The notes below the pieces were generated by a model. The model saw only the letters and a program-made list of their open reading frames with translations. It had not been told where the DNA came from and did no database searches. Below, piece by piece: positions 1,675 through 12,857 of a stretch of DNA of 25,367 nt (positions are counted from its first letter, which is position 1; every line of letters starts with the position of its first letter). The DNA comes from a virus. Taxonomy: Duplodnaviria > Heunggongvirae > Uroviricota > Caudoviricetes. The translations under genes were made by a program, and so were the position numbers. The stretch is taken from positions 1 to 25,367 of IMG/VR virus record IMGVR_UViG_2690315922_000022; one strand, written 5' to 3'.

Positions 1675-2594
1675 AGATATCTCTTGTAGTTCCTGTCTTC
1701 AATGAAGAAGAGGCGATACCAATTTTTTATAAAACGGTGCGTGAATTCGAAGAGTTGAAGCCATATGAAGTAGAAATTGTTTTTATAAATGATGGTAGCA
1801 AAGACGCTACTGAGTCAATTATTAATGCTCTGGCTGTTTCAGATCCTCTAGTTATTCCTCTGTCATTTACTCGCAACTTTGGTAAAGAACCAGCATTGTT
1901 TGCAGGGTTAGACCATGCTACTGGAGATGCCGTGATTCCAATTGATGTTGACCTGCAAGACCCGATTGAGGTTATCCCTCATCTTATTGAAAACTGGCAG
2001 GCTGGCGCCGATATGGTGCTGGCAAAGCGTTCAGACCGCTCTACAGATGGGCGTCTGAAGCGCAAGACAGCAGAGTGGTTTTATAAGCTTCACAATAAAA
2101 TCAGCAATCCGAAGATCGAGGAAAATGTTGGCGATTTCCGGCTGATGTCCCGCGATGTAGTGGATAATATTAAGCTTATGCCAGAACGCAATCTTTTCAT
2201 GAAAGGCATTCTTAGTTGGGTTGGTGGGTCTACAGATGTAGTTGAGTATGTCCGTGCTGAGCGGATAGCCGGCAGCACGAAATTCAATGGATGGAAATTA
2301 TGGAACCTAGCACTTGAAGGTATAACAAGTTTCTCCACTTTCCCTCTGCGTATGTGGACTTATATTGGGCTATTCGTAGCTGGAATGGCTCTTTTATATG
2401 GCACATGGATGATTATCGATACCTTGGTGTTTGGGAATCCGGTTCGCGGTTACCCATCACTTATTGTATCCATTCTCTTCTTAGGCGGAATTCAGCTTAT
2501 AGGAATTGGCGTACTTGGTGAATATATAGGAAGAATTTACATAGAGTGCAAAGATAGACCTAGATTTATTATCAAGAGAATGAAAAATGAATAA
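1671..2594 (+). CDS. gtrB: GtrB, bactoprenol glucosyltransferase (GT2 family)
   Basis: 307 aa; N-terminal GT2 signature ([23 protein letters not shown]) and two C-terminal TM helices; coupled to gtrA and to the downstream gene by overlapping stop/start. Confidence 0.92.
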
Positions 2595-4017
2595 AACAAT
2601 TAAAATCAACTTCTACATACTATTTATTATTTTGTTTTTTATTATAACATGTAATATTTACTACTATGATGATGTATTTAGATCGTATTGGGGATATTAT
2701 GGTTGGTCTGAAGATGGAAGGCCTTTTGCAGATTTATTCTATAAATTATTTATTTTCTTTAGATCTGAAAGCATACCAGATATTTACCCACTACCACTAA
2801 TTTTAACGTCTGTGCTTCTTGTTATATCACTAACAAAGGCATTGCAAAATATACTATCAAAAGATGGGGTTATAGTTAATATAACTTTTGCAATATTTAT
2901 GCTTAATCCTTTTCTTTTGTCTAATATGCTATTTAGATATGATGGTGCATTTATGATTTTATCTATTGCACTTTCGGCTATTCCGTTCATTTTTACAAAA
3001 AGTAGAACATTCGCCATATCATCACTACTGTGCCTAACAATATCGCTTGGATTGTATCAGGCCTCAATAAATGTGTATATTGGACTTGCATCAGTAGTGG
3101 TTGCAATGGAAGCATTGAAAGGGGAAAAGTTTACATCTATAGCCAGCAGAGTGCTATTATCTGTTACATGCGTAGTCTCTTCATATGTTATATACTCAAA
3201 ATTAATACTTGAATCATTATCTTTAAATAATAACTTCTCGAAATATGCTCAAATAGTTGAATTAAATAAAGGAGGAGTCATCAATGTTTATGAGAATATA
3301 ATTAACGCAGTTAAAAAAATTGATGTTGCTCTTCATAGTGGTATTGGAACACCTCTTTATATATTTCTATCAATAATAGCCATATCATCTGTGTGTGTTG
3401 CCATTAAACGAAAACAATTTCAGTTACTATTTTTTATTGCTATATCTATTTTAGGTTGTTTCTTTTCTTCTTTTGGTGTGTCTGTCTTTGGGAAATCGCC
3501 AGTATTTGTGTCAAGGATATTTATCGGATTTGGTGTTTTTATAATGGCAGTTCCTTTGATTGGCTCAGCACTTCTTAATTGGAAACTTAATTACTTACTA
3601 TCATTATTCATTGCAATTCCTATGCTGTCCATCTTTTTTGCCACCATTAATGCCTCAAGAGAGGAATTTAAATTCCAAAACAATTTATCACTTCAAATGA
3701 TTAATGATATTAATCATAGCAAAGCTAAATATCTCGACTTTGTTGTTATTGATGGCTATGCGAAGAACTCCTCTGTTGCAAGCATAAATAAGAAAATATT
3801 TCCCGTAATATCTGATATATTGCCTCCTGTCTTTACAAATAGATATGATGGTGGGGTTTTTACATTGATGAGAAATGGACTAAAAGATGTTGTTAGTGCT
3901 GAGTCATCAGCTGCAGACAACGCGGTATCAATATCAGATGACGGAAATCTAATTTCTGACAATAATATATATAGCATTCATGCGACCAAAGATATTATTG
4001 TAATAAAATTAAAATAA
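2587..4017 (+). CDS. Serotype-specific O-antigen glucosyltransferase (GtrC-type polytopic membrane protein); exact specificity not identifiable
   Basis: 476-aa multi-TM protein as third gene of the gtr operon; very AT-rich compared with gtrAB, as is typical of horizontally acquired type-specific gtr genes. Confidence 0.8.
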
Positions 4018-4023
4018 CCCCTA

Positions 4024-4065
4024 GCCCCCCTCCCGCATCAACTCCAGTAATGGCGGGAGAGGGGC
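4024..4065. terminator. GC-rich hairpin between the convergent gtr operon and tailspike gene (probable bidirectional terminator)
   Basis: 13-bp stem GCCCCCCTCCCGC / GCGGGAGAGGGGC (12 of 13 paired) with a 16-nt loop; U-rich tract follows on the minus strand, A-rich on the plus strand. Confidence 0.45.
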
Positions 4066-4084
4066 TACAAAAAATCAAATATCA

Positions 4085-6148
4085 CTAAGAAAAAATCCAA
4101 TTACCATACATTCCAGTTATTTCACTATATGTGCCTTCTTTATTTTTTAATTTAATCCAAGCGCCGAATTCAGTGGTGGCTACTTGCGTTACTTCTGAAG
4201 AGTTACTTACAAACCTTATATTTGCTACACCTATTGCTCTACTTGGTGATGAGATTGTCATAGCTCTTATTATTTTTAACTCTCTGAAATCACCAGTGCT
4301 ACTTGCAATTATATCAATATCATTAGTGCTATGGTTAAATATAATGGTGTTATTTAACAGCTTTGTATTTTGAAAAGATGTTATTGTGGCAATCCCTCCA
4401 ATAAATCCTCTTATCTGGGCCGGGCCAGTATCTCCACTATCATAGGCTAATGATGTGGTTATATTATCTTCCTCCTTTCCTATATGTATATCAATAAAGT
4501 ACTCTTTTAAACTAATACCAGCCAAAACTAAAAATGTTGATATAGTAGATGTACATTTTTTAATAACCAGATTCTTAAAATTTCGAGATAACCCGCTGCT
4601 TATTGGATCAATAGTTCTAGGTAATAATCTGATTATTTTATCCCCACCAGCTATAGTAGTTTCATCAACAATTTCACCTATTTCCACAAAAAGGCGGTCA
4701 TCCCCCAGCATTTCAAAAACACAAAAGTCTAAAGGAGACGTTTTAAATACCACTCTATCAATTAAGATTTTCCCTATACCATTTCCCATAACTCTAGTAG
4801 CTGTCACCCCTCTGTTAGTCACATTCGTTAGTGTTGTATTCCCCGAGATGATTACATCAGCTACAAGACTGTCAGGGAAAATATTAAGTTCCAAACCAGT
4901 ATACGCACCATTGATGTATGGGTTTGAGATTTCACAATTAATCAGCCGAGGGACAGTGTGTCCAGGCACACTTTCGTCTGCCTCTGGTTCAATATCTATG
5001 CCAGATTTCGGCATAGCACCTGTAACACCTCCGTAGTCACCAATATTATAAATCTCAGGATTAACTATTATTATGTTTTCACCTGACGTTAGGCTTATAC
5101 CGTTACGCCTGCATTGTTTGATGATCGGTTTTTCTATATAGATATTTTCTGGGACCGTGCCATCGGTAGTCCCCCACTTCATGCCTATATATATTCCGTC
5201 GCCAAACATGTTGGTATACAGTCCACCAATAATACGAATATTAGAGGATTGAAGTATTGTAAGCCCCCACCCATGTTCTCCTTCGGATGTGTTTGTTAAC
5301 CGATCACCTTCCAGTACAGGATTATAAATATTTACATTTTTAACACCGTTTGCTATGTAAATGATATGGCTTTGTGGCCTGTTTTGATTTGCTAGTTTTA
5401 ATGCCCCATCCTTTTCAAACCTTATAGTGCTATTATCTACGCATCTTAACACAGATTTAAAAGCATCATTTCCAGGTGAAAAAGGGTCTTCATTCACAGC
5501 CATCAAGTTTTCAAATGATTTATCTATAATGAATTCTGCACCAATAGACGCTGCGGATTCATACGCTTTTTGTAGTGTTTGTGCGTCATTGCAAAAATCA
5601 GAAGCATAAATAGAGCTGGTTTTCTTTAATTCAAATATCCTACCGTTTCTGCTCCTGATAATTAATATTCCATCTGGGGTGAGCGTGGGGGTGGATGATT
5701 CATAAACATATCTACCATGAATCATTACATGATTAAATATATCTGGGACATCCTCTTGCTCTATATTAATAGCAACATATATAAGTTTATTACTTAACTC
5801 CCCCCTTAACTGATCAGGGTCATACTTCAGCACATTCTGGAAATAGAACTGCTGTACGCCATACGCATCATAAACAGCCATAGAATGGCCTTGCACGGTT
5901 ACGAACTTGGCAATCTGTCCGTTATATACAGGGTAACCAGCAGCGTTAATGATGATTGGTTGCGATACAGGAACGTGAGAGCCGTCTTCGTTCTCCACAT
6001 AAACCTGAATCTGGTTTTCAGGATTTACCGGGTCAGTATCAATTTTACCGATATAAATTTTGCCATTAGCTACGGCTTTAAAAGAACGCGCCATAGTGAA
6101 GAGTTGCGAAGGCATGCTAACTACAACATTGGCTGTAATGTCTGTCAT
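4085..6148 (-). CDS. Tailspike protein: P22/Sf6-type N-terminal head-binding domain plus divergent right-handed beta-helix receptor-binding domain (probable O-antigen depolymerase)
   Basis: 687 aa; the first ~110 aa ([34 protein letters not shown]...KYDPDQ) match the conserved tailspike N-terminal domain as I recall it; the remainder is AT-rich with beta-helix-like repeats ([22 protein letters not shown]); GGAG RBS 9 nt upstream. Confidence 0.85.
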
Positions 6149-6248: not shown

Positions 6249-7127
6249 TCAGTAGTTATGTACTGAAGGAGGTAATTCTTTATTCTTAAGTCTCATCCAT
6301 GCGGAAAGATTCGTTGGTCCGTCTGGCTCATTAATATCAACATCTCGTGTGTGATTGATTAAAACGTCTCTCGCCATTCCGATAACATACGAGAACTCAT
6401 GACCGTAGTCGTAGCATCTGCCGGAATAGTTCGATTGAATTTGTTTTAGCGCCGGATACAGTTCGCGGAATAATGCCTGTGAGCGGTTAGCATAATCCCA
6501 TAACCATACAAGGCTGTTTGCTTCTTTTGCAGAAAGCTCGTCGGTTTTCTTCTCTTGTTTGCCAATGAACTCGCCTTCAAGCACTACCCTGTGGATGTAC
6601 TCTACGGCCAGCGGGATTTGTTCAATTGAAAGTTCATCAATACTGTCAATACCAAAACGCTGATGAACCATATTGTATGCATCGTCATAGCGAAGTCCTT
6701 TCTTTCCTACCAGCATGTTTACTGCATCGCGTAGCGGTGTTCTTTCCTCAACAGTGGTTTTCTTTCCTTTTACATACTCGCCATGTTTGCGAATTGAAGG
6801 CAGAACTTCTGCTGTTACCCATTTGCGGAATTTGTGCGGGACTGAACCTTTATTGACTGCATCGCGGCAGCGCAGAACCAATGTATACATACCTGATTCG
6901 CTCACAATGCTTAGATTCTGCTCACCACCAAGGGTGTAACTTAAAGTTACTCCCTTTTCATCGTCATCAAGTGCAGTAAGCGCCTTGCGTGAGTTAGTCA
7001 AAGCTAAAGCATCACAAACATCTTTAGCTACAAACCACGGCTCACCGCACTTGTTGATGACGCGGATTTCACTGTCGCCGAATTTGAAGATGGTGAAATC
7101 GTTTTGTGCCTTTGCTATACTTTTCAT
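6249..7127 (-). CDS. ant: Antirepressor Ant (Bro-N / KilA-type N-terminal domain plus ANT C-terminal domain)
   Basis: 292 aa (P22 Ant is about 300 aa); N-terminal [11 protein letters not shown]...[14 protein letters not shown] motif; located immediately downstream of the arc-like gene as in P22 immI. Confidence 0.85.
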
Positions 7128-7199
7128 GTCAATATTTCCTAATCCGATTTGTTGATACCGAAGCCCTGACTGTTACAGCAGTTGGGGCTTCAACTTTTT
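7128..7199 (+). ncRNA. sar: Candidate sar-like antisense RNA covering the ant RBS and arc-ant intergenic region
   Basis: Plus-strand hairpin GAAGCCC (7160-7166) / GGGCTTC (7185-7191) followed by T5 (7195-7199), antisense to the ant leader; no plus-strand gene is upstream. The 5' end is not defined and promoter elements are weak. Confidence 0.3.
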
Positions 7200-7330
7200 A
7201 GGCTGCGAATAAGACGCTGCACTATTTCTGAATTTAAAGACCTGCCCTCCTCCTTAGCCTTTTCCTTCAATTTTTCTTTAATCTCTGGCGGGATACGAAT
7301 CCCTAATGGAGCGATATCTCTAACTTTCAT
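7190..7330 (-). CDS. arc: Arc-like ribbon-helix-helix repressor
   Basis: 46-aa product from the internal Met (MKVRDIAPLGIRIPPEIKEKLKEKAKEEGRSLNSEIVQRLIRSLKS) with the RHH signature GRS-NSEI; the 87-aa upstream extension is rejected because it would run across the divergent promoter into mnt. Confidence 0.6.
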   Translation of the reverse strand: MKVRDIAPLGIRIPPEIKEKLKEKAKEEGRSLNSEIVQRLIRSLKS

Positions 7331-7440
7331 TTCTTTCCCAATTGCTACACCATGATAACTAAATACTACACCGTGTTTATTTAAAGTCAAAATTTTTTTG
7401 CCTACACTGTGTAGCAATGCTACAGCGTGCAGGAGGAAAA
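7331..7440. promoter_or_regulatory. Divergent Pant / Pmnt promoter-operator region with four CTACAC-type repeats
   Basis: Minus strand: -35 TTGACT (7390-7385), 16-nt spacer, -10 TAGTAT (7368-7363). Palindromes ACACCGTGT (7368-7376) and CTACACTGTGTAG (7402-7414) plus GCTACACC and GCTACAGC copies; AGGAGG RBS sits 4 nt before the mnt ATG. Confidence 0.5.
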
Positions 7441-7689
7441 ATGAAAGGTGCAAGAGATATCAGTCCCTTGGGAATTAGGATTCCAGACTATTTAAAGAAA
7501 CGCATTCAGCAGGAAGCGGATAAAAACGGCAGATCAATGAACTCAGAGATTGTGCTTATCCTTCAAAAACATGTTGATAATCTTGATGGCCCTCGCTCAC
7601 TTGAAGGATTCGCTAACCAAGAAGCTGATAAATTCAAAGAGGCGCTGCTTGAGACGCTGAAAACCATGTATGGCAAGGATGAAAAATGA
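7441..7689 (+). CDS. mnt: Mnt-like ribbon-helix-helix repressor with C-terminal coiled-coil
   Basis: 82 aa from the Met preceded by AGGAGG; N-terminus RDISPLGIRIPDYLKKRIQQEADKNGRSMNSEI is an RHH fold; length matches P22 Mnt (83 aa); divergent from arc-ant. Confidence 0.7.
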   Translation: MKGARDISPLGIRIPDYLKKRIQQEADKNGRSMNSEIVLILQKHVDNLDGPRSLEGFANQEADKFKEALLETLKTMYGKDEK

Positions 7690-7895
7690 ACAAAAAACAG
7701 TTTATTAAGTCAACAACGTCAAGCAAGGAAGAGCTAGAGAAGGAGCTAAACTCCCTGAAATATGCTCTGTGCCTGGTTTACTCAAGACTGCCAATGGAAG
7801 ATAAAAACGCCATTTACAATGAAATGATTAACAGCCTTGATTTTAACGATAGAGACCTAGCATCCCACCTCAACAGCTTCCGCGTCCCTGAGTAA
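7686..7895 (+). CDS. Hypothetical 69-aa protein translationally coupled to mnt
   Basis: ATGA stop/start overlap with mnt; AAGGA RBS; AT-rich; no family recognised. Confidence 0.45.
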   Translation: MNKKQFIKSTTSSKEELEKELNSLKYALCLVYSRLPMEDKNAIYNEMINSLDFNDRDLASHLNSFRVPE

Positions 7896-8055
7896 TTCTA
7901 TTGCGGATTTGCTTCTTACGGTGGTTTAAGCTGGAGAGCTTGGCTTCTGCTTCTGATATTTGCGCATCAAGATCTTTAAGCTCAAGATCTGAAAGTCGCT
8001 GGTCAAGCAGGGTTTGGTTCAACTCAATGTTGTTCAGGCGTTCTTCTATGGTCAT
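7870..8055 (-). CDS. Hypothetical 62-aa coiled-coil protein
   Basis: Internal Met with strong RBS (AAGGAGAAATC-ATG); heptad-like sequence (LNNIELNQTLLDQRLSDLELKDLDAQISEAEAKL); its 3' end overlaps the convergent 69-aa gene by 26 nt. Confidence 0.4.
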   Translation of the reverse strand: MTIEERLNNIELNQTLLDQRLSDLELKDLDAQISEAEAKLSSLNHRKKQIRNRITQGRGSC

Positions 8056-8196
8056 GATTTCTCCTTGTTGAGGTTGATGTGAAACGATTGATTGTATACG
8101 CACTCTTTTGTTAGCTAGTAGCTTTGCTTAATCGCAAGATAAAGTTTCTGATTAATCCCTAAAAATCAAAAAATAAAGTTAAAACAGGTACATGAT

Positions 8197-8413: not shown

Positions 8414-8449
8414 AACAAAAAACCCACCTGACGGTGGGTTTCATTTCTT
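8414..8449. terminator. Bidirectional intrinsic terminator
   Basis: AACCCACC-TGAC-GGTGGGTT hairpin flanked by an A-run upstream and a T-rich tract downstream; lies between the convergent 8197-8400 (+) and 8448-8867 (-) genes. Confidence 0.55.
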
Positions 8450-8867
8450 AATCTTGCTTCGTGGAAGGTATAAGAGATGCATTTGCCTCTTTTGGCTTCA
8501 ATGTATACATCCCACCATTAAATGGATCAACAGCAAGCCAACCAATTAACCCACCAAACACAAGGTTTCCACCAATATACCAACCATTAGCATTGGCTTT
8601 GATTGGCAGGGTAACTGATTCGTACCCATCCTTTTCCATAGTGATCTGGTAGCTCTTTTTGCCAAAATAACTACCATCTGACTTGGCAAGAGTTACTCCT
8701 TGTGGAGTCTTGCCTTGCGCAACAATCACGCCTGATTCATCTTTTACCTTAAAGCTCGCACCGGAAGGGTTGCTGTTCACTTGCACAAGTTGCGTTTCAT
8801 CACCAACAATAGTTGCGCACCCAGATAACATCATAGCGCCAGCAACGACGCCAATAATCCTCTTCAT
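8448..8867 (-). CDS. Outer-membrane lipoprotein with PEGA-like beta-domain and glycine-rich hydrophobic C-terminal motif
   Basis: Signal peptide with lipobox (MKRIIGVVAGAMMLSGC, Ala at +2); mature region VNSNPSGASFKV...GKTP...EKDGYESVT fits the PEGA pattern; C-terminal GGNLVFGGLIGWLAVDPFNGGMY. An alternative start 12 nt upstream (MEIDMKR) is possible. Confidence 0.6.
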   Translation of the reverse strand: MKRIIGVVAGAMMLSGCATIVGDETQLVQVNSNPSGASFKVKDESGVIVAQGKTPQGVTLAKSDGSYFGKKSYQITMEKDGYESVTLPIKANANGWYIGGNLVFGGLIGWLAVDPFNGGMYTLKPKEANASLIPSTKQD

Positions 8868-8988
8868 ATCAATTTCCATATTTAAAAAACCGGAAACATC
8901 CTAATGACAAACCATTCAAATGTGAAGTAGGCAAAAGATGTTTACTTTTTTCATGATATCCTGTGAAAAACTAAGGAGAGTTAACCAT

Positions 8989-9474
8989 ATGAAAAAATCA
9001 CTGTTAATTATCCCGCTTCTGCTGGTTGGATGCGCAAAAGTAAGTGACTATCAAGCAAGTTGCGAACAACGCTATCACAAGCTTAGCGATATGGCTAATT
9101 GCCTTGATGCCAGTGTGAAGAACGACTCACGCATGGCATCAGCACCAACACCTAAGTTGTATGTCCTTGCTGCAAAGATGCTCGGGCAAGGTGTCGATGA
9201 AGGCAAGATAAGTGACGCACAGGCAAGGCTTGAGCTTCAGAATCTTTATGTTCAATTACAAAGCCAAGAACAAGCCCAACAAATAGCACAAAGCCAAGCA
9301 TTCCAGCAGGCTTTATTGAATTATCAGGCTGTAAACACAATGCAAGCGATCGAGCAAAAAGCGAGACAGCCTGTTATAACTCAACCCTATCCAACACGCG
9401 TTGACACTTACACAAACTGCAATTCAGGGTTTGGAAATACAGTCACATGCAACAGTAGCAGTAACATAAGATAA
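8989..9474 (+). CDS. Lipoprotein with Gln-rich coiled-coil region, function unknown
   Basis: Start at the internal Met preceded by AAGGAGAG RBS; lipobox signal MKKSLLIIPLLLVGC (Ala at +2); several Cys and a Q-rich helical segment; divergently transcribed from the neighbouring lipoprotein. Confidence 0.6.
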   Translation: MKKSLLIIPLLLVGCAKVSDYQASCEQRYHKLSDMANCLDASVKNDSRMASAPTPKLYVLAAKMLGQGVDEGKISDAQARLELQNLYVQLQSQEQAQQIAQSQAFQQALLNYQAVNTMQAIEQKARQPVITQPYPTRVDTYTNCNSGFGNTVTCNSSSNIR

Positions 9475-9564: not shown

Positions 9565-11562
9565 CTATTCTGACAACGCATCAGACTTGGCACCCTGAGT
9601 AATGGCGTTAATGGCCTTTTGCGCCTGCTGCATAGCTTTCTCAAACGCTGTTGATCCGCGTGGGGTATTTGCCATTCGGAGCATTGCATTTCTGAATGGC
9701 TCGCTCTCATAGGCGCGAGTAAGAAGTCCGTAGCTTACCGCTGCGCCAGTTGTCGCCGGGTTCATTGCCGTCCCATACCCGATAATGAACGGGATGGTTT
9801 GCTGCCCTGTTGGTGTTGTTACTGCTGCTTTTGCAGCCTGCTGCGTGGATTGCAGGTAGTTTTTCAATCCTTTCAGATAAGCGGCTTCCTGACCTTTAAA
9901 TGTGATGCCAGTCTGGTTTTGCAGGATGTTAAGCTGCCGAAGGAACTGGTCAGGGGATCCGCCAGATTTCTCCATCGCCTTTCCAATGATGCCATTGCGC
10001 ATTTGCGCCCTGCCAACACGACCAACTGAGTTATACAGCGTCTTAATTTCCGATTTGTTCTTGCTGAATAGCATGTTGTTGACAACTTCCGGCGTCAGGT
10101 CGCCTTTCATGAGAACATTCTTCAGCCTGGTATTCTTTAGTTTCGCCGCTTCGTCAGCGTAGACGGCATTGGCCTGCTGATATTTACGGAGAGTATCGTT
10201 GCCAAGATTCTGACCAATGGCACCATTGATATCGTCTGTCATTGCCTTGTAAACGCGCTGAATGGCAGCATCGGAACGGTTTGGTAACACTGGTCGTTCC
10301 CCCTTCACGTCCATTCTGAACTGGCTGCGCAGATCGCTTAATTGCTTCAAATCCAGATTTACCGGACCATCAGGACTAGCATTGCGAATAAGCTCATCAC
10401 GATAGGATTGAAGTTTTGAAATCGTCTCGTTATCAGCGACCTTACCAAGCTTCTGCAGGTTAGATATCTCAGTATCAATCTGCTGAATTGCTCGCACAGG
10501 CTGAATGTTTACTCCAGCCATAGCATTCTGAACCTGCTCCAGTCGATTACCGGCAGCACGACGAATTCCTGATGTTTTCGCTTTAAGGCTGTCAATAACA
10601 ACTGCCGGATCGTACTCGCCGAATTTATCAGCAAATCTCTGCACCAACTGGCTTCTCGCTTCCTGTTGCGTTGCTCTCATTCCGCTTGTGCCAGCCAGAG
10701 GGATATTTTCTGCTGTAGTCTGCGCCATTTTTCCGACGCGGGAAGTTGGTTGTAACAGGTCTGTGGTGTGCAGAGGAACTCCTTCACGCTCTGCAAATCT
10801 GATAGCCTGTTGCGCTTCTGGTGCGATAGCACCACGAACGCCACGATAAGCAGCACCTAATCCACGTCCGGCAGCGTTAATAGCACCGCCAGCCAGCACA
10901 CCAACGCCTAAATCGGTGGCGAGTGCTTCCGCATCATCTTTCGCACTGTTTGCAGCAAGTGATCCAACTGCGTTTTCTGCGAGAAGGCGAGTTGCCCCCT
11001 GAGCAATTCGACCAGCAAGTGTTGGTGCCTGTGTTGCCGCTCTCTCAACGCCAGCAGGAGTGAGGTAAGGCAATGCTTCAGCAAACACCCTGCCCTCTGT
11101 CGTTTGTGGAGTCAGCGCGCCTTGCTGAAGGCCAAAGTCCTGCTCTAATCCCTGCGTTGTTACTCGTGGCGCTGGTTGATATGTACCATCGCCAATGCCG
11201 AGTTTACCGCCAGCCCATGCAGCCGCACTTGTTACAGCATCGGCAACTGATGCAGGTATGTTTGCCACGTTCACGCCAGCCTGCACCAGTCCGCGACCAG
11301 TCTCTTTTACTGCTTCGCCAAGATCAGACATAAATCCACTTTGCTGTGGTTGTTGCTGTGCTACTGGTTGCTGTGTCTCCACTTGCTGCACAGATGGCAA
11401 TGGATAGGCAGCATAGAAAGCTTGCTTAGCCTGCTCTGCATTTTCTCCGGCTTGCGGGGCCACGACTTCATTGAAGTATTGCTCCTGAGCCTGCGCTTTT
11501 TGTTCTGGTGCTAACGCCTGATACTGTGGAGAGGCGATAACATCTTTCCATGCTTTAGCCAT
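9565..11562 (-). CDS. Ejection (E) protein, P22 gp16-like
   Basis: 665 aa, Ala/Gln/Gly-rich; position and composition match P22 gene 16; start overlaps the gp20 stop by 1 nt (TAATG). Confidence 0.8.
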   Translation of the reverse strand: MAKAWKDVIASPQYQALAPEQKAQAQEQYFNEVVAPQAGENAEQAKQAFYAAYPLPSVQQVETQQPVAQQQPQQSGFMSDLGEAVKETGRGLVQAGVNVANIPASVADAVTSAAAWAGGKLGIGDGTYQPAPRVTTQGLEQDFGLQQGALTPQTTEGRVFAEALPYLTPAGVERAATQAPTLAGRIAQGATRLLAENAVGSLAANSAKDDAEALATDLGVGVLAGGAINAAGRGLGAAYRGVRGAIAPEAQQAIRFAEREGVPLHTTDLLQPTSRVGKMAQTTAENIPLAGTSGMRATQQEARSQLVQRFADKFGEYDPAVVIDSLKAKTSGIRRAAGNRLEQVQNAMAGVNIQPVRAIQQIDTEISNLQKLGKVADNETISKLQSYRDELIRNASPDGPVNLDLKQLSDLRSQFRMDVKGERPVLPNRSDAAIQRVYKAMTDDINGAIGQNLGNDTLRKYQQANAVYADEAAKLKNTRLKNVLMKGDLTPEVVNNMLFSKNKSEIKTLYNSVGRVGRAQMRNGIIGKAMEKSGGSPDQFLRQLNILQNQTGITFKGQEAAYLKGLKNYLQSTQQAAKAAVTTPTGQQTIPFIIGYGTAMNPATTGAAVSYGLLTRAYESEPFRNAMLRMANTPRGSTAFEKAMQQAQKAINAITQGAKSDALSE

Positions 11563-12857
11563 TAATCACCCCATAGTGAAGAAAAGTTACTGCCAGTAGT
11601 AGATTGTTGCCCTGGCATATTCTGCACCGGCTCCTGATAATCAAACTGTTTTTTAACAGTGCTCAACTTGCTTTCAAGCTGATTTCTAATCTTTCCGATA
11701 GAGTCACGAAAAGCCTTTTCACTCATTTTGGGGCTTAGGGCACCAACCGCATCGGATAATTTTTTACCCTCAGCATCTGAAAGAGCGCCCATACCCTTCA
11801 GGGACTGCACCATAGGAAGGAATGTTTGAGCTTTAAAGGTGTCGAGCCTTGCTTCAAAGTTAGCCGCATCAGAGCCAGGAACTGTCGGAAACGCTGAGCG
11901 AATTCCTACTGCTTTTGAAAGGCCGGGGCTTTGCTCTATCTCGTTGAGAGAATCAAGCGCGGTGCTGAACGTATCAACTGCACCCTGAGCGGCGGCCTGC
12001 CTGTCAGCGCGGGCTATGTCAGCCTTTTGCCGAACATCTGCCTGTTTCTGTTTTAGCTCTTCAAGCTTTAACTGATTGCTTTCTCTGGCTATCTGTCTGT
12101 CCAGAGCCTTTTCTTGTAATTCTGCTCTTTGTATTTCGCGGGAAAGAGCAGCATTCTGTGCGCTGATGTTCTGTCCACGTATCTGGATGTCCTGACCACG
12201 CGCTGTTAGTGCTTCTCCAGCCTGATTGCTGCGGATTGTCTCTGCCAGCCTACCTCGGTCAATCTCACGACCAGCCATCTTGTCCTGAACATTGAAGTAG
12301 TCAATCGGACCGAGAGCAGCCATCCCAAGGTGATCAACAAACTCACCAAATCCTGAAGGATTCTGCTGATACATCTGAGCAACGTTATTAGGGTCAACAC
12401 CGACGCTAGTCAGTTCCTTGGCGTTGTTTTGCAGCCATGATTGCATTGCTTCTGGAGACGATGCCGCAAGACGAGCGCCAGCCGCTAAGGTGCCGATAGA
12501 ATTGCGCTGGTCTTCATCAATGAATCCCATGCCTTTACGAACGGATTCAATCTGGTCCGGATATTGAGTAGCCAACTGACGCAAAGCACCGCGATCACCA
12601 GACGCATAAGCATTAGCGTATGCCTGCTGAAATTCTTTCTGCCGCTGAGCCTGCTTTTCCTGCTGAAACACCCCCGCAATACCTGAAAGGCCTTGCAAAG
12701 CAGTCAGCCCAACATTGTTAGCGCCGGAACGCTCAATATCATTGTTCTGCCTGATAAGCTGAAGCGTATTGCCGATGTCATTTACGCTAGGAGCGTTTGA
12801 GTTGACGCCACCGATACCAGCCAACAATCCGCCATTTGATCCTTGCCAAGTAGCCAT
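11562..12857 (-). CDS. Ejection (E) protein, P22 gp20-like
   Basis: 431 aa; N-terminus MATWQGSNGGLLAGIGG... typical of gp20-type injection proteins; conserved order 7-20-16. Confidence 0.8.
   Translation of the reverse strand: MATWQGSNGGLLAGIGGVNSNAPSVNDIGNTLQLIRQNNDIERSGANNVGLTALQGLSGIAGVFQQEKQAQRQKEFQQAYANAYASGDRGALRQLATQYPDQIESVRKGMGFIDEDQRNSIGTLAAGARLAASSPEAMQSWLQNNAKELTSVGVDPNNVAQMYQQNPSGFGEFVDHLGMAALGPIDYFNVQDKMAGREIDRGRLAETIRSNQAGEALTARGQDIQIRGQNISAQNAALSREIQRAELQEKALDRQIARESNQLKLEELKQKQADVRQKADIARADRQAAAQGAVDTFSTALDSLNEIEQSPGLSKAVGIRSAFPTVPGSDAANFEARLDTFKAQTFLPMVQSLKGMGALSDAEGKKLSDAVGALSPKMSEKAFRDSIGKIRNQLESKLSTVKKQFDYQEPVQNMPGQQSTTGSNFSSLWGD

Follow-up and report, generated by a model that had tools for sequence, protein, structure and literature searches.

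The window examined in this study is a stretch of 25,367 nucleotides (positions 1 to 25,367 of IMG/VR virus record IMGVR_UViG_2690315922_000022) and represents the minus-strand virion, or late, region of a P22-like phage. At 6249–7689 it was found to carry a complete immI module of the P22 type, consisting of ant, the sar RNA, an Arc-like gene and a divergent Mnt-like gene (Table 1), and its gene content identifies the locus as an antirepressor-control module (mnt / arc-sar-ant) lying among the late genes of a P22-like phage or prophage. The initial annotation had assigned the locus to immI, and this was borne out by the sar RNA, by the Bro-N and P22_AR_C domains of the ant product and by the surroundings of the ant moron, which is flanked by gp16/gp20-like DNA-transfer genes and a P22-type tailspike according to PHROG matches. 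The ant moron is a variable region of P22-like phages, the P22 version being the sole one studied (PMC2629481). The present analysis concerns the two predicted ribbon-helix-helix (RHH) repressors and the 110-bp region between their genes (7331–7440), in which the classic two-operator switch of P22 is probably wired differently.

Both repressor products were well above the gathering cut-off of the Pfam Arc family (20.4 bits), with scores of 49.1 for the Arc-like and 32.8 for the Mnt-like protein. The Arc-like gene immediately precedes ant in the same orientation, while the Mnt-like gene has a Shine-Dalgarno sequence (AGGAGG) 4 nt upstream of its ATG. The best PDB match of the Mnt-like protein was the Mnt repressor itself (1mnt, 1.6e-5, residues 4–76), and those of the Arc-like protein were Arc and Mnt, its N-terminal head being aligned by HMMER with RDDPHFNFRMP of P22 Mnt; the heads of both proteins aligned in this way to ARDDPHFNFRMP of P22 Mnt. 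A GRSxNSE turn motif (G-R-S-x-N-S-E) was also present. In an AlphaFold2 (AF2) monomer model of the Mnt-like protein (mean pLDDT 81) helices were placed at residues 16–29, 33–49 and 54–81, the first two being preceded by an extended N-terminus, which is consistent with RHH topology, the β-sheet of which needs a dimer; a fold search with this model returned RHH structures on top (Arc, AmrZ, CopG). The C-terminal sequence of the Mnt-like protein is common to Mnt variants with the P22 head. With its long C-terminal helix (54–81) in the model it is presumably tetrameric, and the Arc-like protein, whose sequence is without such an oligomerisation helix, is presumably dimeric. It should also be noted that NCBIfam places the Arc-like protein in the "YlcI/YnfO family" (NF041551, 33.2 bits, cut-off 30), and that its RefSeq name is likewise. 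This name hints at a link with YlcI and YnfO, two small Escherichia coli proteins encoded by cryptic prophages.

To compare the two repressors, each was split at the R-x-P which ends the strand, giving a head of 12 residues and a body formed by the next 31 (the two helices). The heads were identical at 10 of 12 positions and the bodies at 11 of 31 (Fisher p = 0.006), so that the near-identical N-terminal strand regions described in the initial annotation were confirmed, as were the open reading frames and their sequences; the same split applied to P22 Arc and Mnt gave 5/12 for the head and 13/31 for the body. The Arc-like head also shares 8/12 residues with the head of the L048 Mnt, against only 2–4/12 with other Arc heads, while its body shares up to 19/31 with other Arcs and 11–14/31 with Mnt bodies. 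The Arc-like protein therefore looks chimeric in sequence, with an Arc-type body and a Mnt-type head. The DNA-facing strand residues are Q9, N11 and R13 in P22 Arc and H6, N8 and R10 in P22 Mnt; the aligned positions in both window proteins are Pro, Gly and Arg, with the arginine alone kept. Much of the specificity may thus lie in the N-terminal R-D-I arm and the strand arginine, and base contacts probably rest on these two shared elements. The classic altered-specificity mutant of Mnt is reportedly His6-to-Pro, and proline is what occupies that position here, which serves as a lead only.

The intergenic region contains CTACAC on the plus strand at 7345, 7366 and 7402 and on the minus strand at 7409–7414, together with CTACAG at 7420. 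The minus-strand copy is the second arm of a perfect palindrome, CTACACTGTGTAG, and the repeat unit proved to be a 13-bp odd palindrome, CTACAC-N-GTGTAG (6-N-6), present in four copies (sites A to D) with spacings of 21, 36 and 18 bp. The four CTACAC-type repeats and the perfect palindrome reported initially were thus present at these positions, but the unit is this palindrome and not a hexamer in direct repeat. When the window was searched with the pattern CTACASYRTG, which was defined after the sites had been seen, its four matches in 25.4 kb all fell within the 110-bp region, compared with a mean of 0.18 in shuffled sequences, none of 100 of which reached four. A search with CTACACNGTGTAG at up to two mismatches matched the window only at 7366, 7402 and 7420, and in a repeat search of 7300–7470 every repeat belonged to this family or else to head-coding DNA or the two gene starts.

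The measured optimal half-site of P22 Mnt is GTGGACC (PMC2726951). Since the half-site found here, GTGTAG(C), agrees with that of P22 Omnt in the inner GTG, in the A and in forming an odd palindrome, the predicted operators can be considered Omnt-like. The comparison with both P22 operators suggested in the initial annotation therefore held for Omnt, whereas nothing resembling the 21-bp Oarc appeared in the repeat search of 7300–7470. A stretch at 7352–7372 matching Oarc at 11/21 positions by eye was dropped, as it depends on a G-to-A change specific to the window. This change, at 7352, gives CTACACCATG in site A where all 11 other unique window-type intergenic regions aligned read CTACACCGTG; it hits the otherwise invariant inner GTG of the site and creates a −10-like hexamer (TATCAT) on the minus strand. 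A second leftward promoter, TAAACA-16-TATCAT, was rejected because its −10 exists in the window alone, other alleles having TATCAC. The exact intergenic sequence of the window was present in no complete E. coli genome (best match 97.3%), and the A at 7352 could be either an operator-down variant or an error.

The leftward promoter proposed initially (TTGACT, 16 nt, TAGTAT) was recovered by the promoter scan and is referred to as Pant. Its −35 hexamer (TTGACT, TTGACA or TTGCCT) is kept in 17 of 17 type-2 alleles, with −10 candidates scoring 2–5 of 6. On the plus strand of the intergenic region no site exceeded the threshold of the promoter scan, and this includes the candidate for Pmnt given in Table 1, which was inferred from conservation: the distance between a TACA[CA]T hexamer in site C (TACAAT in L089) and the Pant −35 is exactly 12 nt in 17/17 related intergenic regions, with a T-run or an A-run in between, and the central base is an invariant T at site C only. 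TTTAAA-17-TACACT, whose −35 abuts that of Pant, is tentatively taken as the most likely Pmnt, which would stand back-to-back with Pant, about 59 bp separating the two start sites; confidence in this falls a little short of even because the TACACT hexamer is operator sequence too. A P22-like overlapped Pmnt with a −10 of TAAAGT (7382–7387) was also considered, but its critical A2 is not conserved in relatives and TACACT was preferred, still weakly. Relative to these promoters, sites A and B fill the positions of Omnt and Oarc in the annotated P22 record with a single motif. Site C lies over the candidate Pmnt −10 and site D in the mnt leader, and these two, between the Pant −35 and mnt, are without a counterpart in P22. 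An imperfect 25-nt inverted repeat (7392–7416/7418–7442, 76% complementary) spans sites C and D and the mnt Shine-Dalgarno sequence; an mnt transcript starting upstream of site C could fold here into a leader hairpin that would hide the Shine-Dalgarno sequence.

Table 1. Features of the immI module in the window and of related cassettes in other sequences.
Sequence	Feature	Position	Strand	Detail or basis
Window	Tailspike, N-terminus P22 head-binding	4085-6148	(-)	PHROG
Window	ant, antirepressor gene, 292 aa	6249..7127	(-)	Pfam Bro-N 7.6e-20, P22_AR_C 1.8e-29; PHROG 245 "anti-repressor Ant" 2e-111
Window	Psar-like promoter, within ant start	7093..7121	(+)	GTGAAA-17-TATACT with TG; promoter scan
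Window	sar antisense RNA, complementary to ant ribosome-binding region	7129..7195	(+)	Rfam RF00262
Window	sar terminator hairpin	7160-7191	(+)	Terminator scan
Window	Arc-like RHH repressor, 46 aa	7190..7330	(-)	MKVRDIAPLGIRIP...; Mnt-type head KVRDIAPLGIRIP; Pfam Arc PF03869 5.2e-13
Window	Operator site A (predicted)	7345..7357	.	CTACACCATGATA; repeat family; about -1 to +12 of Pant, P22 Omnt position
Window	Pant-like promoter	7363..7390	(-)	-35 TTGACT 7390..7385, 16-nt spacer, -10 TAGTAT 7368..7363; promoter scan
Window	Operator site B (predicted)	7366..7378	.	CTACACCGTGTTT; repeat family; in Pant spacer, overlaps -10, P22 Oarc position
Window	Candidate Pmnt	7380..7408	(+)	TTTAAA (7380-7385), 17 nt, TACACT (7403-7408); 8/12 match, weak, inferred
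Window	Operator site C (predicted), perfect palindrome	7402..7414	.	CTACACTGTGTAG; 0 mismatches
Window	Operator-like site D	7420..7432	.	CTACAGCGTGCAG; 2 mismatches; overlaps mnt Shine-Dalgarno by 2 nt; least certain site
Window	Mnt-like RHH repressor, 82 aa	7441..7689	(+)	MKGARDISPLGIRIP...; head GARDISPLGIRIP; Pfam Arc PF03869 6e-8
Window	orf69, start overlaps mnt stop (ATGA)	7686..7895	(+)	phrog_16466, unknown function
Window	DNA-transfer (ejection) protein genes	9565-12857	(-)	PHROG
PhiR12_1 (L003, PV340549)	Cassette	2905-3940		Within tail gene cluster
E. coli CP55_Sichuan prophage (L087)	Cassette	3086-5098		Within tail gene cluster
Emek (L002, JQ806763)	Intergenic motif region	3880-3972		

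To further investigate the conservation of this arrangement, related alleles were collected mostly from viral contigs and by look-ups of exact proteins, a scan of genome contigs giving two loci. A 98.8% identical allele was found in the lambdoid siphophages PhiR12_1, PhiR12_4 and PhiR12_5 and in 19 of 5426 complete E. coli genomes. Where the surroundings of the cassette were inspected, in the PhiR12 phages and in a single E. coli prophage, it lies between tail genes L and K, with a gene for a ClpP-like protease after mnt. The occurrence of the same cassette among unrelated virion modules, in podovirus and siphovirus backgrounds, indicates that it is mobile. More distant window-type alleles came from Tatumella terrea (L005), Salmonella (L091, with ClpP plus HicA after mnt) and Serratia (L093), and further ones were L020, with a match to a Pluralibacter protein, and two alleles taken from read assemblies, L092 and L094. 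The head pattern R-D-I-x-P-x-G-x-R-x-P was kept in both proteins of every window-type allele found, and some changes to the head occurred in parallel in both proteins, as GIR to GVR in Tatumella, R-N-I-A-P in L095 and R-D-I-S-P in L091. Between alleles the proportion of synonymous differences (pS) was 0.36–0.97, largely saturated and highest in the most divergent, while that of nonsynonymous differences (pN) was 0.03–0.18; dN/dS was 0.02–0.14 in the three alleles where it could be computed, and 0.02–0.06 for the Arc-like gene. These values indicate that both genes are under purifying selection.

The predicted operators A to C were conserved as well. The 70-bp core from A to C is 86–94% identical between alleles, more than the adjoining coding DNA, and the distances of A, B and C from the Pant −35 were constant throughout the window-type alleles scored, with an A-B spacing of 21 bp and an A-C spacing of 57 bp. 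Site C matched at 12/12 positions in all 13 window-type alleles scored and was also intact in L095 and L053. In relatives, sites A and B matched at 7–10/12 and 8–10/12, respectively, with CTACAC-N-GTG kept and the outer right arm variable. Pairs of identical sites 57–58 bp apart recur in L053 and L048. In L053 the arc gene (2282–2386, minus strand) encodes only 34 aa (MENARKIPPTGVRIPESIKAALKASAKKRRQIIK*) while the head and operators are intact; it is either decaying or affected by an assembly frameshift, and, arc being short, L053 was counted for head and operator sequences only. It should also be noted that the viral contig L018 has a second mnt with a P22 head (ARNDPHFNFRMP, 3039–3293) about 300 bp downstream of its window-type mnt, and thus appears to hold two Mnt specificities in tandem.

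Alleles with other head combinations served for comparison. With the same repeat search, P22, in which the heads differ, gave two unrelated palindromes, and L021, also with different heads, gave two repeat families. In type-i alleles the intergenic backbone is shared and the Arc head is unrelated, and these regions contain at most one TACAC half-site plus TGATATCA palindromes, whereas all 12 of 12 type-ii intergenic regions contain four to five TACAC half-sites and no TGATATCA. In the Salmonella phage vB_SemP_Emek (JQ806763), Arc (PQFNLRWP) and Mnt (PQFNVRMP) have the same DNA-facing residues, and TAsTAC-C-GTwCTA recurs at a distance of 28 bp. The count of motif families therefore follows that of distinct heads, across classes that differ in many respects at once. 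A clean code from head to half-site was sought in the type-i relatives (L021, L048, L088, L089) and rejected, because similar Mnt heads go with different outer bases and palindrome geometry; type-i classes were used solely to contrast how many motif families occur, and the contrast classes are taken as supportive evidence that decodes no recognition rule.

The presence of the same head in both paralogs, together with a single motif family at the Omnt and Oarc positions, favours a shared specificity. Two distinct operators read by two heads, as in P22, were not found; there was one motif family, and the heads are those identical at 10/12. It is therefore suggested, with a probability of roughly 0.6, that both repressors bind one operator family which controls two back-to-back promoters, and that the locus represents a distinct specificity allele. 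The proposal in the initial annotation that the two repressors share half-site specificity is thus favoured by the conserved shared heads, by the single motif family and by the placing of that motif at both P22 operator positions, and it stays a prediction from sequence. In such a scheme, Mnt made from Pmnt in a lysogen would hold Pant off through A and B and would limit its own synthesis through site C. After infection of a cell without Mnt, Pant would fire and Arc and Ant would be made, and Arc would then act at these same sites to close both Pant (A/B) and Pmnt (C/D), with the sar RNA damping ant translation. Any difference in function between the repressors would come from timing and oligomeric state instead of operator sequence, and, should site C bind most tightly, A and B could still be filled if A cooperates with B over 21 bp or with C over 57 bp.

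Several points weigh against a shared operator family working in this manner. The DNA-facing strand positions are Pro and Gly where polar residues would be expected. The candidate Pmnt matches at only 8/12 positions and its −10 is confounded with operator sequence, and site D is poorly conserved in relatives (7–10/12, with shifted positions). The L048 Mnt has nearly the same head (VRDISPYGVRMP), yet its sites have other outer bases (GTGATA), and the L076 Mnt (PQFKLRLP), which has an Arc-like strand, keeps an Omnt-like operator, GAACCAC-G-GTGGTTC (2417–2503); because of these two cases the similarity of heads is no reliable code for the site. Furthermore, were site C, which overlaps the candidate Pmnt, to bind most strongly, Mnt might silence its own gene before A and B are filled, so that the model would need cooperativity, and the geometry of the oligomers could give the two proteins different subsets of sites.

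This last point leads to an alternative, considered rather unlikely, in which the operator family is the same but its use is partitioned, the tetrameric Mnt-like and dimeric Arc-like proteins preferring different sites by spacing or symmetry. Arc dimers might, for example, pair on C while Mnt bridges A and B over their 21 bp, or the reverse, and a switch like that of lambda CI and Cro would result, with opposite orders of affinity on shared operators. The site quality is graded and this grading is conserved, C being complete in all alleles scored while A and B consist of one full arm plus the inner GTG; the fixed A-B and A-C spacings, the recurrence of 57–58-bp pairs in L053 and L048 and the presence of a long C-terminal helix in Mnt alone would all suit such a division. 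The sequence, however, gives no sign of which protein prefers which site. The P22 Mnt tetramer binds a single 17-bp palindrome, which would favour C for Mnt too. A more speculative extension, also thought unlikely, is a bistable toggle in the style of CI/Cro in which two RHH paralogs with the same head would acquire opposite preferences for A/B and C/D purely from being dimer and tetramer; it would have arisen by transplantation of a Mnt head onto an Arc body, such swaps being a recurrent route to new immI specificities, with Emek as a case in the opposite direction.

It is improbable that the shared head merely reflects gene conversion or recombination between arc and mnt and has no function, with the two proteins reading different DNA through other residues as in P22. 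The chimeric look of the Arc-like protein suggests that recombination probably happened at some time, and a 9-nt sequence, AGAGATATC, is common to the arc and mnt genes. However, six of the ten identical head residues are encoded by different codons in the two genes, and the head is kept in both across alleles in which synonymous sites are saturated (pS up to 0.97); these two observations rule out recent gene conversion as the source of the shared head and argue that it is selection which keeps the heads alike. The intergenic region also contains no second motif family which could serve a second specificity, and N-terminal residues are said, from work of Knight and Sauer in 1989, to determine the specificity of Arc and Mnt. 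More improbable still is that the CTACAC repeats are promoter-related or due to chance and are not operators, one or both of the small genes being decaying remnants of immI. P22-like phages commonly carry ant morons that are degraded or incomplete (PMC2629481), and both the truncated arc of L053 and the G-to-A change unique to site A of the window would fit such decay, but the motif is strongly clustered, palindromic and Omnt-like, its conservation exceeds that of the coding DNA next to it, purifying selection acts on both genes, and the sar RNA and ant are intact. One operator family bound by both repressors therefore stays the preferred reading.

P22 immI is the closest known system, sharing with the window the order and orientation of genes, a position flanked by the tailspike gene on one side and the ejection-protein genes on the other, homologues of ant and sar and of the Arc and Mnt families, and operators (predicted in the window) over the Pant start and spacer. 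P22 differs in having two unrelated operators and heads, Omnt (AGGTCCAC-C-GTGGACCT) covering the Pant start and the 21-bp Oarc filling the Pant spacer in the annotated record. Its intergenic region is 90 bp, compared with 110 bp here, and Pant overlaps Pmnt completely there, with the −35 of one set over the −10 of the opposing promoter. P22 Arc and Mnt use separate operators, and P22 Mnt is not known to repress Pmnt. The window, by contrast, has one head, one four-copy operator family, an extra perfect site proximal to mnt and probably back-to-back promoters.

Emek offers a second immI allele with shared DNA-facing residues and one motif, so the sharing of a head between Arc and Mnt is not unique to the window allele. 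There, however, the swap runs in the opposite direction, an Arc-type head sitting on Mnt, the operators are Oarc-like, and the layout follows P22 and has no counterpart of the mnt-proximal site; in the Emek record the ant gene carries a query as to whether it is defective. Engineered hybrids of Arc and Mnt, in which the N-terminal segment of one was set on the helical body of the other, were reportedly made by Knight and Sauer in 1989 and by Raumann et al. in 1995. The Arc-like protein described here similarly combines a Mnt-type head with an Arc-type body, but it is a natural allele under purifying selection, and its head, RDI[AS]PLGIRIP, differs from both P22 heads. At lambda OR, CI and Cro, expressed from divergent promoters, share the graded operators between them, and in the same way two divergently expressed repressors would share a graded operator set here; the window proteins are, however, RHH paralogs and not helix-turn-helix proteins, and the module controls an antirepressor instead of the primary lysis-lysogeny decision. 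Arrays of short direct or inverted repeats bound by cooperative RHH dimers through the β-ribbon are known from the met boxes of MetJ, the heptads of omega and the ParG and CopG arrays (PMC3413123). In those multi-site operators a single repressor uses the array, whereas here two paralogs of different oligomeric state would do so. Among the papers searched, none described this allele or operators shared by Arc and Mnt. The parts themselves are all familiar; what appears to be new, as far as the sequences go, is their arrangement around a single specificity, an additional operator near mnt and a head swap that occurred in nature.

The 3′ part of ant is 91% identical to P22 ant, and the Psar-like promoter contains an element, TTGCTATACT, which P22 has at the equivalent place. 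The sar RNA was detected at full length (model positions 1–68 of 68) with 69.4 bits against a gathering score of 43 and folds with −29.8 kcal/mol (z = −6.8). A 41-nt stretch spanning its terminator shows 97.6% identity to P22 as well as to many P22-like and Stx phages, and the CUS-3 annotation labels this stretch a mosaic "boundary sequence". On the other side, orf69 is probably co-transcribed with mnt, and the same gene also follows mnt in Kapi1 and Emek. The remainder of the moron (7686–8103 and 8448–9474) consists of small genes of unknown function, among them an opposite-strand open reading frame of 62–77 aa which is annotated as XhlA-like in Kapi1, one of 143 aa with a lipoprotein-like N-terminus and another encoding a 178-aa protein.

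P22 Arc and Mnt are textbook models of DNA recognition by a β-sheet, with few N-terminal residues setting specificity. If the proposed reading is true, the window would provide a natural allele in which two paralogs with the same head face one operator family, a natural counterpart of the classic head-swap experiments and a means of finding out to what extent two repressors acting at shared sites can be set apart by oligomeric state alone. The finding overturns no principle but can be tested directly and would be of use to those working on RHH proteins and phage regulation. It would also be an example of the diversification of second-immunity (antirepressor) specificity in P22-like and lambdoid prophages, a diversification that affects which prophages can induce one another. 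As the cassette is mobile, with podovirus and siphovirus carriers and a presence in those 19 of 5426 E. coli genomes, the matter is of practical interest for cross-talk between prophages.

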